DNA of 5,650 nucleotides from a virus (Duplodnaviria > Heunggongvirae > Uroviricota > Caudoviricetes). A model generated the notes under the pieces. It was not told the DNA's origin. It did not search any database and saw only the letters and a list, made by a program, of their open reading frames with translations. The DNA is taken from the IMG/VR virus record IMGVR_UViG_2541047502_000017. One strand, 5' to 3'. The translations under genes and the position numbers were made by a program. Shown piece by piece: positions 1 through 5,650 of the stretch (the stretch's first letter is position 1; every line of letters begins with the position of its first letter).

Positions 1-1578
1 CTGTTACCCGTTTATGCACAGAAAACCGGGAAAACCACCGATGAAATTGCTGCCATGCTGGCGGATGAGACCTGGATGTCCGGTGCCGAATGTCTGGCAC
101 ATGGATTTGCTGATCAGGTGACGCCAGCCGTTAAGGCAATGGCATGTATTCAGTCAAAACGTACAGAGGAATTTAAAAAGATGCCGGAATCCATTCGAAA
201 CATGATTACTCCGCCACGCAACAGTGCTCCACGCGTACAGGATGATGGACCTGCAGCCTCCCGGACGCCAGTGCAGGCAGCAGCACCTGTGGTGGATGAA
301 AACAGTATCCGTGCGCAGGTACTGGCAGAGCAAAAAGCGCGTGTAAACGGTATTAATGATCTGTTTGCCATGTTTGGCGGGCGTTATCAGACGCTGCAGG
401 CTCAGTGTCTTGCCGATCCTGAATGTTCGCTGGAGCAGGCCCGCGAAAAGCTGTTGAACGAGATGGGGCGCGAGTCCACGCCATCTAATAAAAATACCCC
501 GGCTCATATTTATGCCGGAAACGGTAATTTTGTGGGGGATGGGATCCGCCAGGCGCTGATGGCGCGTGCCGGATTTGAAAAAACCGAACGTGATAATGTC
601 TACAACGGGATGACCCTGCGTGAATATGCCCGTATGTCACTGACTGAACGGGGTATTGGGGTTTCCAGTTATAACCCGATGCAGATGGTCGGTGCGGCGT
701 TCACACACAGTACGTCTGACTTCGGTAATATTCTGCTGGATGTTGCGAACAAAGCCATTCTGCAGGGCTGGGAAGATGCCCCTGAAACCTATGAACAGTG
801 GACGCGGAAAGGTCAGTTGTCTGATTTTAAAATTGCCCATCGTGTGGGTATGGGGGGCTTCAGTGCTCTGCGTCAGGTGCGTGAAGGGGCGGAATATAAA
901 TACGTCACCACCGGAGATAAACAGGCCACTATTGCACTGGCGACCTATGGCGAGCTGTTCAGTATCACCCGTCAGGCCATTATCAATGATGATCTGAATA
1001 TGCTGACCGATGTCCCGATGAAACTGGGCCGTGCGGCGAAATCCACTATTGCCGATCTGGTTTATGCCATTCTGACGTCTAACCCGAAAATCTCCACAGA
1101 TAATGTAAGTCTGTTCGATAAAGCGAAACATGCAAACGTACTGGAGAGCGCTGCAATGGACGTGGCATCGCTGGATAAAGCCCGCCAGTTGATGCGCGTT
1201 CAGAAAGAGGGGGAGCGTCATCTGAATATTCGTCCTGCGTTCGTACTGGTACCGACGGCGATGGAGTCTGTTGCTAACCAGGTCATTCGCTCCTCAAGTG
1301 TCAAGGGGGCTGACATTAACGCCGGTATTATTAACCCGGTGAAAGATTTTGCGACCGTTATTGCAGAGCCTCGTCTTGATGATAACAGCCAGACCACCTT
1401 CTACCTGGCTGCGTCAAAAGGCTCCGATACGATTGAAGTGGCTTATCTCAACGGTGTGGATACGCCATATATTGATCAGATGGAGGGCTTCAGTGTGGAT
1501 GGCGTGACAACGAAAGTGCGTATTGACGCCGGTGTCGCGCCAGTTGATCACCGCGGTCTGGTGAAATGTACGGCGTAA
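1..1578 (+). CDS. Fused prohead protease / scaffold-like linker / HK97-fold major capsid protein; 3' portion only (5' end lies upstream of the window)
   Basis: Frame 1 is open from base 1 (no stop before the ATG at 55 listed in the ORF track), so the gene enters from upstream. The first ~30 codons (…KTTDEIAAMLADETWMSGAECLAHGFADQV) resemble the C-terminal end of ClpP/S49-type phage prohead proteases. A Pro/Ala/Gln-rich, charged linker follows, then ~350 aa that read like an HK97-fold major capsid protein. Stop TAA at 1576-1578. Confidence 0.8.
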   Translation: MLPVYAQKTGKTTDEIAAMLADETWMSGAECLAHGFADQVTPAVKAMACIQSKRTEEFKKMPESIRNMITPPRNSAPRVQDDGPAASRTPVQAAAPVVDENSIRAQVLAEQKARVNGINDLFAMFGGRYQTLQAQCLADPECSLEQAREKLLNEMGRESTPSNKNTPAHIYAGNGNFVGDGIRQALMARAGFEKTERDNVYNGMTLREYARMSLTERGIGVSSYNPMQMVGAAFTHSTSDFGNILLDVANKAILQGWEDAPETYEQWTRKGQLSDFKIAHRVGMGGFSALRQVREGAEYKYVTTGDKQATIALATYGELFSITRQAIINDDLNMLTDVPMKLGRAAKSTIADLVYAILTSNPKISTDNVSLFDKAKHANVLESAAMDVASLDKARQLMRVQKEGERHLNIRPAFVLVPTAMESVANQVIRSSSVKGADINAGIINPVKDFATVIAEPRLDDNSQTTFYLAASKGSDTIEVAYLNGVDTPYIDQMEGFSVDGVTTKVRIDAGVAPVDHRGLVKCTA

Positions 1579-1601
1579 ACGTCGCAGACAACAACTCTGA
1601 T

Positions 1602-1621
1602 GGCCCGTAAGGGCTTTTTTT
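1602..1621 (+). terminator. Possible weak intrinsic terminator/attenuator after the capsid gene
   Basis: GGCCC-GTAA-GGGC hairpin (4-5 bp GC stem, GNRA-type tetraloop) at 1602-1614, immediately followed by a run of 7 T at 1615-1621, 24 nt after the capsid stop. The short stem makes it weak. Confidence 0.35.
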
Positions 1622-1632
1622 GTACCTGAAAT

Positions 1633-1651
1633 CAGCCCCTGAACGGGGCTG
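1633..1651 (+). other. Perfect 7-bp stem-loop just upstream of the next gene's ribosome-binding site (possible RNA stability or processing element)
   Basis: CAGCCCC (1633-1639), loop TGAAC, GGGGCTG (1645-1651) form a perfect inverted repeat. No T-run follows. The GGAGA Shine-Dalgarno at 1654-1658 and the ATG at 1665 come right after. Confidence 0.3.
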
Positions 1652-1664
1652 TGCGGAGACAGTT

Positions 1665-1988
1665 ATGGCAAAGAATTTTGTAGAAGAAGGAAAAACGGTG
1701 GCGATTGTTGCCAGTGCAGCCATCAGCAGCGGAGATCTGGTGCAGGTGGGCGATGTTTTTGCGGTGGCGCTGACCGATATTCCACAGGGTGAAACAGGCG
1801 ACGGCATGACCGAAGGTGTGTTTATGCTGCCTAAGCTGAAAACGGATGACATGAAAACGGGTAAGAAGGTTTATCTGAAGTCAGGAAAAGTTCAGCTGAC
1901 TAACAGCGGCTCTGATCCGCTGGTCGGGGTTGTCTGGGCAGATGCCGGAACCAGTGCAGAAGAAGTGCCGGTAAAACTCAATGTCTGA
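1665..1988 (+). CDS. Small head protein, DUF2190-like (putative capsid decoration/cement protein)
   Basis: 107-aa ORF. ATG at 1665 is preceded by GGAGA at 1654-1658; the ORF-track start at 1620 is a TTG lying inside the hairpin/T-run and is unlikely. Gly/Val-rich, beta-rich composition and position immediately after the major capsid gene. The family name is from memory and not verified. Stop TGA at 1986-1988 overlaps the next start. Confidence 0.65.
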   Translation: MAKNFVEEGKTVAIVASAAISSGDLVQVGDVFAVALTDIPQGETGDGMTEGVFMLPKLKTDDMKTGKKVYLKSGKVQLTNSGSDPLVGVVWADAGTSAEEVPVKLNV

Positions 1989-2256
1989 TCCCTTTTCCCG
2001 GCTGGCAGCGCGTATGGATGCTATCACGGTCAGAAAGATGGGAAAGACAGCCTCGATTAATGATGTCGATATGACTGTGATCCCGGGAGAAACACTGGCA
2101 GAGCTGAATGCTCTGTCCGGACCTGCGGTCTCTCTGGTGGTGTTTTCTTCGGGATACCGCCCACGGCGCGGGGATCGCGTTGTTTATGACGGACAACAAT
2201 GGACGGTCACACGGCATGAACGCTTTAACGGTAAGCCAATGATCTTTATTGAGTAA
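1981..2256 (+). CDS. Head-tail joining (head completion) protein, lambda FII-like
   Basis: 91-aa ORF. Its ATG at 1981 overlaps the upstream stop (ATGTCTGA, 8-nt overlap), indicating translational coupling. Recalled similarity to lambda gpFII at both ends (FSRLAARMDAI versus FDNLFDAAIARAD; PRRGDRVVYDGQQWTV versus LRRGDTLTIGEENFWV). Stop TAA at 2254-2256. Confidence 0.65.
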   Translation: MSDPFSRLAARMDAITVRKMGKTASINDVDMTVIPGETLAELNALSGPAVSLVVFSSGYRPRRGDRVVYDGQQWTVTRHERFNGKPMIFIE

Positions 2257-2267
2257 AGAGGTGTGGG

Positions 2268-2846
2268 ATGAAGGGGCTTGAGAATGCCATCCGCAATCTG
2301 AACAGCCTTGATACCCGTATGGTGCCACAGGCCAGCGCATGGGCGATAAACCGTGTGGCACAGAAAGCGGGCTCGGTTGCCACCCGGCAGGTTGCCGGGA
2401 ATACCGTTGCGGGAGATAACCAGGTGAAAGGGATCCCCCTGAAACTGGTTCGTCAGCGTGTCCGGGTGTTTAAAGCCAGTCCGTCAGGAAAAATGACGGC
2501 CAGGATCCGCGTTAACCGGGGCAATCTGCCCGCCATTAAGCTGGGGACAGCCCGGGTCAGACTGGCCCAGCGTGGTGGAAAACTGCAGTACCGTGGCAGT
2601 GTGCTGAAGGTGGGTAAATATCTTTTCCGGGATGCGTTTATTCAGCAACTGGCGAATGGTCGCTGGCATGTGATGCGGCGTATTGATGGCAAAAATCGTT
2701 ACCCCATTGATGTGGTGAAAATCCCGCTGTCCGGACCGCTGACACAGGCATTTGAAGATGCCCGCGACCGCATCATTGCTGCGGAAATGCCGAAACAGCT
2801 GGGGTATGCACTGAAACAACAACTGAGGTTATGGCTGACCCGATGA
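2268..2846 (+). CDS. Tail completion protein, lambda Z-like
   Basis: 192 aa, the same length as lambda gpZ. N-terminus MKGLENAIRNL…AWAINRVAQKA and C-terminus …NGRWHVMRRIDGKNRYPIDVVKIP…LGYALKQQLR resemble gpZ as I recall it. AGAGGTG ribosome-binding site at 2257-2263. Synteny FII-Z-U-V. Confidence 0.8.
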   Translation: MKGLENAIRNLNSLDTRMVPQASAWAINRVAQKAGSVATRQVAGNTVAGDNQVKGIPLKLVRQRVRVFKASPSGKMTARIRVNRGNLPAIKLGTARVRLAQRGGKLQYRGSVLKVGKYLFRDAFIQQLANGRWHVMRRIDGKNRYPIDVVKIPLSGPLTQAFEDARDRIIAAEMPKQLGYALKQQLRLWLTR

Positions 2847-3244
2847 ACCGACATACACAAATCCGCCAGGTCGTACTGGCACGCCTTCGGGAACAGTGTG
2901 GAGACAGCGCCACGTTTTTTGACGGGCTTCCGGCATTTGTTGATGCGCAGGAACTGCCTGCCGTGGCGGTGTGGCTGAGTGATGCTCAGTACACCGGAAA
3001 AATGACGGATGAAGATGACTGGCAGGCTGTTCTGCATATTGCTGTCTTCATCCGGGCACAGGCACCGGATTCAGAGCTGGATATGTGGATGGAGAGCACC
3101 ATTTTCCCGGCCCTGAATGATGTATCGGCACTTTCCGGACTCATCGACACCCTGATCCCACTCGGTTTTAACTATCAACGTGATAATGAGATGGCCACCT
3201 GGGCGATGGCGGAAATCACGTACCAGATCACGTACACGAATTAA
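2843..3244 (+). CDS. Tail terminator protein, lambda U-like
   Basis: Start ATG at 2843 overlaps the Z stop in an ATGA arrangement (TGA 2844-2846). The product MNRHTQIRQVVLARL…ATFFDGLPAFVDAQELPAVAVWLSDAQYTG…DSELDMWMES…ITYQITY closely parallels lambda gpU (…ATFFDGRPAVFDE…PAVAVYL…DSELDAWMES…LTYVITY). An in-frame ATG at 2831 is an alternative start. Stop TAA at 3242-3244. Confidence 0.85.
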   Translation: MNRHTQIRQVVLARLREQCGDSATFFDGLPAFVDAQELPAVAVWLSDAQYTGKMTDEDDWQAVLHIAVFIRAQAPDSELDMWMESTIFPALNDVSALSGLIDTLIPLGFNYQRDNEMATWAMAEITYQITYTN

Positions 3245-3254
3245 GGAGGTGGTA

Positions 3255-3998
3255 ATGACCACGCCAAATCCACTGGCAAAGACGAAAGGTGCGGGGACGA
3301 CGTTCTGGATGTATACCGGCAACGGCGATGCGTTTGCGAACCCTTTGTCGGACACTGACTGGCTGCGTCTTGCGATGGTGAAGGATCTGCAACCTGGCGA
3401 AATGACCGCTGATGCAGAAGATGACACTTATCTCGATGATGAAGATGCAGACTGGAAAACGACAACCCAGGGGCAGAAATCCGTTGGTGATACTTCGGCG
3501 ACGCTGGCCTGGCGTCCGGGTGACAGCGGGCAGAAAAAACTGGTTCAGTTGTTCGACTCCGGTGAAGTCTGCGCGTTTCGTATCAAATATCCCAACGGCA
3601 CTGTTGATGTTTTCCGCGGCTGGCTGAGCTCACTGGGTAAAACCATTGCCTCAAAAGACGTGATGACCCGCACAGTGAAAATCAGCGGTGTGGGGCGTCC
3701 ATATCTGGCAGAGGAGGGCACTGAAACTGTGGGCGTTACCGGGCTGACGGTGGCACCGGCATCCGCCAGTGTCAATGTGGGAGCAACCACCACGCTGACC
3801 TTTACAGTAAAACCTGACGGAGCCAGTGACAAAGCGATCAGTGTGCATTCGACAGATCCACAGACAGCCACTGTGACCCTGAACGGACTTGTGGCCACGG
3901 TGAAAGGCGTGAAGCAGGGCAGCGTCAGCATTGTGGGCATGACCGCTGACGGGAATTTTGTGGCTGTGGCTGCGGTGACTGTCAGCGCTGCAGGTTAA
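3255..3998 (+). CDS. Major tail tube protein, lambda V-like, with C-terminal Ig-like (Big_2-type) domain
   Basis: Strong ribosome-binding site AAGGAGGT at 3243-3250, 4 nt before the ATG at 3255. The N-terminus MTTPNPLAKTKGAGTTFWMYTGNGDAFANPLSDTDW…YLDDEDADW…GDTSATLAWRPGDSGQ…YPNGTVDVFRGWLSSLG matches lambda gpV nearly motif for motif. The C-terminal ~90 aa (GLTVAPASASVNVGATTTLTFTVKPDG…) look like a Big_2 Ig-like domain. The ORF-track start at 3180 lies inside the U gene and is rejected. Stop TAA at 3996-3998. Confidence 0.9.
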   Translation: MTTPNPLAKTKGAGTTFWMYTGNGDAFANPLSDTDWLRLAMVKDLQPGEMTADAEDDTYLDDEDADWKTTTQGQKSVGDTSATLAWRPGDSGQKKLVQLFDSGEVCAFRIKYPNGTVDVFRGWLSSLGKTIASKDVMTRTVKISGVGRPYLAEEGTETVGVTGLTVAPASASVNVGATTTLTFTVKPDGASDKAISVHSTDPQTATVTLNGLVATVKGVKQGSVSIVGMTADGNFVAVAAVTVSAAG

Positions 3999-4018
3999 CA
4001 GGACGATACTCATCATTT

Positions 4019-4042
4019 GCCCCGGTTATCCGGGGCTTTTTT
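4019..4042 (+). terminator. Rho-independent terminator/attenuator between the major tail gene and the chaperone gene
   Basis: GCCCCGG (4019-4025), loop TTAT, CCGGGGC (4030-4036) give a perfect 7-bp GC-rich stem, followed directly by TTTTTT (4037-4042). It starts 20 nt after the V-like stop and lies just upstream of the G-like ribosome-binding site. Confidence 0.55.
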
Positions 4043-4055
4043 GCAGGTGGAGAAC

Positions 4056-4445
4056 ATGATGTTTCTGAAACAGGGCACGTTTAATTATGAAAAGCAGTCC
4101 GTGGTGCTCAGTGAGCTGTCCGGGCTGCAGAGAATTGAATATCTGGCGTTTGTTCAGCAGCGAACGGCAAAGTTTGATGCCGAAGAGGGAGAACTGCCGG
4201 AGGCTGAACGACAGATTGCTTTTCTGCGGATGGGGATGGATATCAATGCCTGGCTGGTTTCCCGCTCACTGTGGAATGCGGAACAGTCTCAGGATGTTGA
4301 GACGCTTTGCGCATCCGTTATTACAACATGGTCGTATGATGCCCTGGGAGCGGGGGCGGAGATGGTTCTGTCGCTGAGCGGTATGGGAGCCATTGAGAAT
4401 GCCGGGGATTTGGAGCATGAGGTGCTGACGCCGGAAAAGTCCTGA
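4056..4445 (+). CDS. Tail assembly chaperone, lambda G-like
   Basis: MMFLKQGTFNYEKQSVVLSELSGLQRIEYLAF… parallels lambda gpG (MFLKTESFEHNGVTVTLSELSALQRIEHLA…). AGGTGGAG ribosome-binding site at 4045-4052. The start is ATG 4056 or the adjacent ATG 4059. The ORF-track start at 4017 is a TTG inside the terminator hairpin. Stop TGA at 4443-4445. Confidence 0.85.
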   Translation: MMFLKQGTFNYEKQSVVLSELSGLQRIEYLAFVQQRTAKFDAEEGELPEAERQIAFLRMGMDINAWLVSRSLWNAEQSQDVETLCASVITTWSYDALGAGAEMVLSLSGMGAIENAGDLEHEVLTPEKS

Positions 4446-4783
4446 CGCGGGAAATGCAGTTTGTCATGCGGCTTGCCCGGGAGTTCCGGCGGGCAGACTG
4501 GCGGCGGATGCTGTCGGAAATGTCGGCCACTGAGCTTGGTGAGTGGGGCGATTATTTCCGGATGCAGAGCTTCAGTGATGTGTGGATGGATGCGCAGTTT
4601 GCCTCGCTGAAGGCATTGATCGTGAGAATGGTGTCCGGTAGCAGTGATGCTGCGGTGGCTGATTTCAGCCTTTTACCGGAAGAGAACGGGATACCGGAGC
4701 GAACGGACGAAGAACTGATGCATCTTGGGGAAGGTATTTCCGGAGGTGTGCGTTATGGACCAGATAGCCAACCTGGTCATTGA
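4056..4783 (+). CDS. Tail assembly chaperone G-T fusion product, made by a -1 frameshift near 4433-4439 (two-segment CDS: 4056 to about 4439 in frame 0, then about 4439 to 4783 in frame -1)
   Basis: The downstream ORF (4454-4783 in the track) is in the -1 frame relative to G, overlaps the G 3' end, and has no ribosome-binding site of its own. This is the conserved G/G-T architecture upstream of tape measure genes in long-tailed phages. Stop TGA at 4781-4783. Confidence 0.7.
4433..4439 (+). other. Putative -1 programmed ribosomal frameshift site (heptamer G GAA AAG) for the G-T fusion
   Basis: The -1 frame is open only from 4421 (stop TGA at 4418-4420) and the G frame stops at 4443, so the shift must occur within 4421-4442. 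The only slippery element in that interval is GAA-AAG at 4434-4439, preceded by G. It differs by one base from lambda's G GGA AAG. Confidence 0.55.
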
Positions 4784-5390
4784 TTTGGGGATTGATGCGG
4801 CAGAGTTTAAAAATGAAATTCCCCGTATCAAAAACCTTCTGAATGGTGCAGCCAGCGATGCAGAACGGTCTTCTGCCCGTATGCAGCGTTTTATGGAGCG
4901 TCAGACTCAGGCCGCCCGGCAGACAATGCAGGCGGCTTCTTCGGCTGCAACAGCCGCATCCGTCCATGCGCAGACGGTGGAGAAGAGCGCACAGGCTCAT
5001 GAACGCATGGCCCGCGAGGTGGAGCAAACCCGCCAGCGTATGGAGGCACTGAGCCAGAAAATGCGCGAGGAACAGGCGCAGGCCATGGCTCTGGCGGAGG
5101 CTCAGGATAAAGCGGCTGCTGCGTTTTATCGTCAGATTGACAGTGTGAAACAGGCCGGTGCGGGGCTGCAGGAATTACAGCGTATTCAGCAACAGATCCG
5201 ACAGGCCAGAAACAGTGGCGGGATTGGTCAGCAGGATTATCTGGCGCTGATTTCTGAGGTTACGGCGAAAACCCGTGTTCTTACACAGGCTGAGGAAGAG
5301 GCTACCCGACAGAAAGTGGCGTTTATCCGTCAGCTTAAAGAGCAGGCAACCCGCCAGAATCTTTCTTCTTCTGAGTTGCTTCGTGCGTAA
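4755..5390 (+). pseudogene. Tape measure protein gene, N-terminal ~212 codons only; truncated by an insertion sequence
   Basis: GGAGGTG ribosome-binding site at 4742-4748 and ATG at 4755, overlapping the end of T by 29 nt. The N-terminus MDQIANLVIDLGIDAAEFKNE… resembles lambda gpH (…VGDLVVDLSLDAARFDEQ…), followed by Ala/Gln/Arg-rich coiled-coil-like sequence typical of tape measure proteins. Tape measure proteins of tails this type are usually 700-1100 aa, but this frame stops at TAA 5388-5390, which sits inside the GTAAGCG terminal motif of the IS. Confidence 0.7.
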
Positions 5391-5650
5391 GCGTACATCC
5401 TGAACCGTCTGGTCAGAATCTGACGAATTAGACAAAGTGGTGTCCACCAAATAAGTAGTGGGAACCAAAGTATCAGATATGCAGAAAAATGTGACTCCCG
5501 GCAGGCGAAAAGGCTGCCCTAATTATCCTCCCGAATTTAAACAGCAGCTCGTTGCTGCCTCCTGTGAACCCGGGATATCCATCTCAAAACTTGCTCTTGA
5601 AAATGGCATTAACGCCAATCTGTTGTTCAAATGGCGACAACAATGGCGCG
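5387..5650 (+). mobile_element. IS66-family insertion sequence, left end (continues beyond the window)
   Basis: The sequence beginning GTAAGCG at 5387 matches the 5'-GTAAGCG terminal inverted-repeat motif I recall for the IS66 family. About 90 bp further in, an ORF begins whose product resembles IS66-family TnpA/orf1. It interrupts an otherwise conserved phage gene. Confidence 0.6.
5479..5650 (+). CDS. IS66-family transposase accessory protein TnpA (orf1), N-terminal 57 codons; 3' end beyond the window
   Basis: Frame 1 is open from the ATG at 5479 to the window end. Translation: MQKNVTPGRRKGCPNYPPEFKQQLVAASCEPGISISKLALENGINANLLFKWRQQWR, with a helix-turn-helix-like segment and the ANLL…W(R/K)QQW motif typical of IS66-family orf1 proteins. 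It is not in the ORF track because it has no stop within the window. Confidence 0.65.
   Translation, partial: MQKNVTPGRRKGCPNYPPEFKQQLVAASCEPGISISKLALENGINANLLFKWRQQWR

Follow-up and report, generated by a model that had tools for sequence, protein, structure and literature searches.

The window analysed here, a stretch of 5,650 nucleotides, is the entire draft contig AVRQ01000018.1 of Escherichia coli 14A (assembly GCA_000462225.2). It can be stated with high confidence that it records the transposition of the insertion sequence ISEc8 into the tape measure gene of an Sp3-type prophage in this O157:H7-like strain, at codon 211/212. Phage homology ends exactly at position 5386 in comparisons with phage Ayreon, FRIK944 and Sakai, and the sequences diverge right after it. 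The GTAA at the terminus of the insertion sequence closes the tape measure frame at once and leaves a 211-residue N-terminal stub; the donor was most probably an ISEc8 copy resident in the same genome.

An Sp3-type prophage with a shortened tape measure gene

Positions 1–5386 are 100% identical to a prophage that is present in many complete O157:H7 genomes (FRIK944, FRIK2455 and F1273 among them), where the tape measure gene is 3066 nt long (1021 aa). The gene order in these prophages is ClpP-protease/capsid fusion, DUF2190, FII-like, Z-like, U, major tail protein, G, T and tape measure; this is followed by M, L, K, I, J, lom and the tail fibre gene, and then by the effector genes nleB2, nleC and nleH1-1. 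The same block is annotated in Sakai as 'prophage Sp3, lambda-like phage', with ECs_0837 as its tape measure gene. A comparison of window positions 3887–5386 with Sakai Sp3 showed one mismatch in 1500 nt (1499/1500 identical), and the window shares the gene order of this lambda-like prophage, which carries nleB2-1, nleC, nleH1-1 and nleD. Judged by this identity and synteny, the prophage is an Sp3-type, lambdoid prophage of O157:H7-like E. coli. Free phages of the mEp460/Ayreon/cdtI group are 98–99% identical to the window from position 4000 to approximately 5386, and their protein likewise has 1021 aa. At this site, the tape measure gene of Sakai and of every complete genome is uninterrupted, unlike that of the window.

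The genes next to the lesion are arranged as in lambda. The gene for tail assembly chaperone G (4059–4445, plus strand) was recognised by the Pfam family Phage_TAC_2 and is annotated as gpG in FRIK944 and F1273, while the frame for tail assembly protein T (4454–4783, plus strand; Pfam Phage_tail_T) lies in frame -1 relative to G and overlaps the tape measure start with its 3' end. A GGAAAAG heptamer at 4433–4439, just 5' of the G stop codon (4443–4445), is likely to be the programmed frameshift site for a G-T fusion, by analogy with the GGGAAAG slip site of lambda G/GT. The open reading frame (ORF) that begins at 4755 follows the G/T chaperone pair directly, which is the position of a lambda-type tape measure gene: lambda gpH is likewise encoded after G and T, and the intact Sp3 allele carries a Tape_meas_lam_C domain. 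The two proteins differ in length, with 1021 aa for the intact Sp3 protein and 853 aa for gpH, whereas only the N-terminal 211 aa can be encoded here. Elsewhere in the window, the major tail protein (3255–3998) features a C-terminal Big_2 Ig-like domain (Pfam PF02368) alongside Phage_TTP_12, which is ordinary for a lambda-like gpV, and an Rfam scan of the whole window identified no RNA family.

The truncated tape measure gene occupies 4755–5390 on the plus strand. The sequence and the ORF list place its ATG at 4755 and its in-frame TAA at 5388–5390, such that 211 sense codons precede the stop, which is itself codon 212. An earlier note on this DNA had described a recognisable tape measure N-terminus cut at a TAA within a GTAAGCG motif at 5387–5393, and homology and coordinates bear this out; its statement that the frame stops after 212 codons was right about the position of the stop, but counted the stop codon with the sense codons. 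The 211 residues are identical to residues 1–211 of the 1021-aa Sp3 tape measure proteins of Sakai and FRIK944, which are identical to each other, and differ at two residues from the N-terminus of the Ayreon protein. About one fifth of the full-length protein is left. An exact look-up found the stub on record as ERC90948.1, a 'hypothetical protein' (B230_1097) of E. coli 14A; the literature yielded nothing on the accession, assembly or strain.

Pfam analysis of the intact 1021-aa allele located TMP_2 at residues 228–426, TMP_4 at 616–693 and Tape_meas_lam_C at 811–885, and TIGR01541 spans residues 656–981. All of these lie downstream of residue 211, so every recognised tape measure domain is absent from the stub, and a Pfam and NCBIfam scan of its 211 residues yielded no domain match. 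A lambda-type tape measure protein has approximately 850–1050 aa and features both TMP_2 and Tape_meas_lam_C, whereas the product of the window has 211 aa and no domain; the ORF is a gene fragment and not a functional member of the family. The 90% protein cluster that includes the stub holds 794 N-terminal tape measure fragments, most of which are partial proteins at contig ends. One member of this cluster, a 240-aa form (P0123), occurs on 136 contigs, including one of 4.6 Mb, a distribution suggestive of a further truncation that recurs.

ISEc8 at the breakpoint

Across the site, intact alleles read ...TTGCTTCGTGC|TAAGGCTGCCCAG..., which translates as L L R A K A A Q, while the window reads ...TTGCTTCGTGC|GTAAGCGTACATCC.... 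Comparison with the intact alleles indicates that the TAA (5388–5390, plus strand) is supplied by the terminus of the insertion sequence. The element contributes its first G to the Ala211 codon (GCG) and the stop codon follows directly, so that the stub contains no foreign residues. Intact phage tape measure genes (Ayreon, mEp460, cdtI and others) aligned by megablast at 98–99% identity with ends at 5386–5391, where the last few bases past 5386 are chance matches. The long frame can be restored on paper: joining position 5386 to the intact-allele sequence after the shared 14 bases gives ...L L R A | K A A Q L G....

The remainder of the window, 5387–5650, corresponds to the left 264 bp of ISEc8, an IS66-family element of 2442 bp when complete, and lies in the same orientation as the phage late operon (plus strand). 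It matches 263 of 264 nt of the annotated ISEc8 in Stx2 phage 1717 ('insertion sequence:ISEC8', with tnpA, tnpB and tnpC), and its first 74 nt match resident ISEc8 copies on O157:H7 chromosomes and pO157 without exception (74/74). The same 264 nt match thousands of places in E. coli genomes that are annotated 'IS66-like element accessory protein TnpA'. By nucleotide identity, the inserted element is ISEc8. Its left terminal inverted repeat, GTAAGCGTACATC..., was placed at 5387–5408 (plus strand) through a comparison of the left and right repeats with the phage 1717 copy, in which the leftmost 13 nt are perfectly complementary to the right end. The left end seen at 5387 is GTAAGCG, and the ends of the reference copies are GTAAGCGTACAGC and GCTGTACGCTTAC.

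The sole difference within the 264 nt is at position 12 of the element (window position 5398), where the window has T and the copies of phage 1717 and F1273 have G; the T adds one mismatch to the pairing of the two terminal repeats. This T allele is common to resident ISEc8 copies on O157:H7 chromosomes (at about 349 kb) and on pO157, which makes these copies candidate donors. The 74/74 identity, which takes in this allele, is as expected for a donor within the same genome.

The 5' part of tnpA (5479–5650, plus strand) was identified from the ORF list and profile matches and covers 57 of 126 codons before it runs off the end of the contig. It begins at nucleotide 93 of the element, the same offset as in ISEc8, and the RefSeq tnpA of F1273 (381 nt, 126 codons) starts at the same ATG. 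The 57-residue fragment matched Pfam HTH_Tnp_1 (E 1.4e-10) and the NCBIfam IS66 TnpA models (E 1e-16), the latter with scores under the curated cut-offs, which is no surprise when only 57 of the 126 residues are present. The suggestion that an IS66-type TnpA-like ORF begins at 5479 was therefore confirmed by the 99.6% nucleotide identity to ISEc8, the RefSeq tnpA annotation and the TnpA profile matches. In the ISEc8 copies of phage 1717 and F1273, tnpB and tnpC are also present.

The same note had taken GTAAGCG as the mark of an IS66 terminus. This placement holds through the ISEc8 homology that begins at 5387, but the bare 7-mer proved uninformative: it occurs once in the window and at least once in 61 of 200 dinucleotide-preserving shuffles, a chance expectation of around 30% for which we rejected the motif alone as evidence of an insertion sequence. 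Since the 7-mer is this common in shuffled sequence, the insertion finding rests on homology.

The left junction is real. The same junction and the same 211-aa product are found in an independently assembled Logan contig, SRR5461690_279, which is represented in at least 20 samples and ends 29 nt into the insertion sequence, as expected of a k-mer assembler at a repeat. None of 5426 complete E. coli genomes carries the insertion (551-nt junction-spanning query, coverage never above 53%), an exact DNA pattern for the left junction had no match in GTDB species representatives or IMG/VR, and the junction is absent from all phage records that cover the region. With the junction missing from all four of these sets of records, the insertion defines a lineage known only from draft or read data.

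Two readings in which the gene is not interrupted at all can be weighed against these data. A chimera, assembled at the repeat boundary of a draft genome, might be suspected of any short draft contig that ends inside a multicopy insertion sequence, and this contig is of that kind: it begins 450 nt inside the ClpP-protease/capsid fusion gene and breaks off after 264 nt of ISEc8, and both ends have the look of assembly breaks caused by repeats. O157 genomes contain 3–6 places similar to the window region, and the sequence stops at 5650 because the draft assembly broke inside the multicopy element. The break in homology, however, falls exactly at the canonical terminus of the insertion sequence, and the identical junction and product recur in the independent Logan assembly from at least 20 samples, which leaves a chimeric join extremely improbable. 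Even smaller is the chance that the 211-codon ORF is a small gene in its own right, with the tape measure protein encoded elsewhere. The existence of the ORF and the lack of a Pfam domain in its product are what speak for this reading, but all 211 residues are identical to the N-terminus of the 1021-aa protein of Sakai and FRIK944, and 17 of the 17 phage records that cover the region read on through the site. The question of whether homologous phages naturally have a short protein at this position is thereby answered in the negative; phages and prophages encode 1021 aa there.

Predicted target site and right junction

The 8 bp that adjoin the end of the element, CTTCGTGC (5379–5386, plus strand), are the predicted target site and would represent one copy of the expected duplication. 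Two other ISEc8 insertions illustrate the pattern. In phage 1717, the ends of ISEc8 read GTAAGCG...CGCTTAC, and an 8-bp direct repeat, GGTTATCG, lies on either side. In F1273, the Sp3 prophage has another ISEc8 in its DUF2190/Phage_cement_2 gene, in the opposite orientation and with the 8-bp duplication GATCTGGT (locus L008, 6234–8691); the insertion site corresponds to 1734–1741 of the window. This is an independent event, which shares the prophage and the insertion sequence with the window copy but hit the DUF2190 (head decoration-like) gene and left the tape measure gene intact. ISEc8 also disrupts nu1 of the Sakai prophage Sp4 (PMC2669165), another case in which this element has hit a lambdoid O157 prophage in a gene for morphogenesis or packaging, although both the prophage and the gene are different.

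By analogy with the reference copies, the ISEc8 of the window would be complete (tnpA-tnpB-tnpC, 2442 bp) and flanked by duplicated CTTCGTGC, with the remaining 810 tape measure codons behind it. A second CTTCGTGC would thus stand 3' of the element and be followed by TAAGGCTGCC..., and a simple insertion predicts a right junction composed of the ISEc8 right end and CTTCGTGC+TAAGGCTGCCCAGC. A simple, complete insertion of this kind is very likely to be the state of the locus.

It is improbable, by comparison, that the element marks a rearrangement, such as an IS-adjacent deletion or a recombination or inversion between two of the approximately 10 ISEc8 copies of the genome, in the course of which the 3' part of the tape measure gene, and the tail and effector genes beyond it, would have been deleted or relocated. 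The 8–15 ISEc8 copies per O157:H7 genome would offer ample substrate for recombination, and the right junction was found neither by pattern searches of IMG/VR and JGI metagenomes nor by look-ups of remnant proteins. The exact pattern GTACGCTTAC-CTTCGTGC-TAAGGC had no match in IMG/VR and JGI metagenomes, and 11 of 12 guessed C-terminal remnant proteins (with internal ATG or GTG starts, or contig-edge partial forms with a leader derived from the insertion sequence) were not on record in exact look-ups. The missing right junction is, however, explained by a contig that ends in a repeat and by searches that require exact sequence, no positive evidence points to a rearrangement, and the two other ISEc8 insertions that were examined are simple, with 8-bp duplications. 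The twelfth guess, a 739-aa 'MSPKGMM...' remnant (P0150), is recorded from one Logan contig of 2720 bp, which could not be assigned to the window locus. A homology search with the C-terminal 793 aa returned two 792-aa proteins (P0090 and P0117) as candidates for remnants next to an insertion sequence, and these were rejected as frameshift-split alleles without one. On two Logan contigs (L005 9317–12379 and L006 1575–4637) a related tape measure gene is split into ORFs of 224 and 792 aa that lie 10 nt apart and are free of insertion sequences; such splits are frameshift or nonsense alleles or sequencing errors.

Consequences for the prophage and its host

In lambda, the tail initiator complex incorporates the C-terminal portion of gpH, and tail length is dictated by how long this protein is. 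On this analogy an N-terminal stub would be unable to support tail assembly, since it lacks the part needed in the initiator as well as the length. The earlier proposal that the prophage is probably tail-defective is a reasonable inference for a 211-aa stub from which all three tape measure domains are missing. It had further been proposed that the prophage is a cryptic remnant unless the insertion sequence excises precisely. The prophage is indeed cryptic, but the weight placed on excision is wrong, as Sp3 is non-viable through other lesions. In Sakai Sp3, the integrase, bet and portal genes are pseudogenes (locus L009, 1198–1968, 5355–6002 and 17748–18110). The same prophage in FRIK944 has a frameshifted DUF1441 gene, which is the terminase small subunit gene in the Sakai annotation, and its large terminase and gpJ genes are interrupted by stop codons (locus L007, 9296–13606 and 24212–27625). 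Sp3 also has no repressor, anti-repressor or replication genes (PMC2669165), and in Sakai neither its circularisation nor its replication or packaging was seen, making it experimentally non-excisable (PMC2669165). Because of the integrase, bet and portal pseudogenes and the absence of repressor and replication genes, precise excision of the insertion sequence would not rescue the phage. The tail defect is nearly irrelevant to the fate of the prophage, and in practice it adds a lesion to an element that was already immobile and cryptic and is in decay.

An effect on other phages is conceivable but very unlikely. If the stub were made from the late operon and kept the part that is coated by G/GT, it might act as a dominant negative that titrates these chaperones and disturbs the tail assembly of related phages. 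It could be directed at lambdoid prophages in the same cell or at superinfecting mEp460/Ayreon-group phages, and the G, T and tape measure N-termini of the latter are 98–99% identical to those of the window. Should this be true, an IS lesion in a dead prophage would affect the O157 'defective prophage pool'.

Both the element (ISEc8) and the prophage (Sp3) were already known and only the insertion site is new; the event is an ordinary strain-level mutation that raises no new biological question. Its multicopy nature makes the insertion sequence the explanation for the contig end here and for contig breaks in short-read assemblies, and the record B230_1097 (ERC90948.1) should be annotated as the 5' fragment of a tape measure pseudogene disrupted by ISEc8. 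As the site is absent from the 5426 complete E. coli genomes yet present in at least 20 SRA samples, it could serve as a lineage marker. Together with the F1273 insertion and the disrupted nu1 of Sakai Sp4, it provides a further example of how O157 prophages lose their morphogenesis genes to ISEc8.
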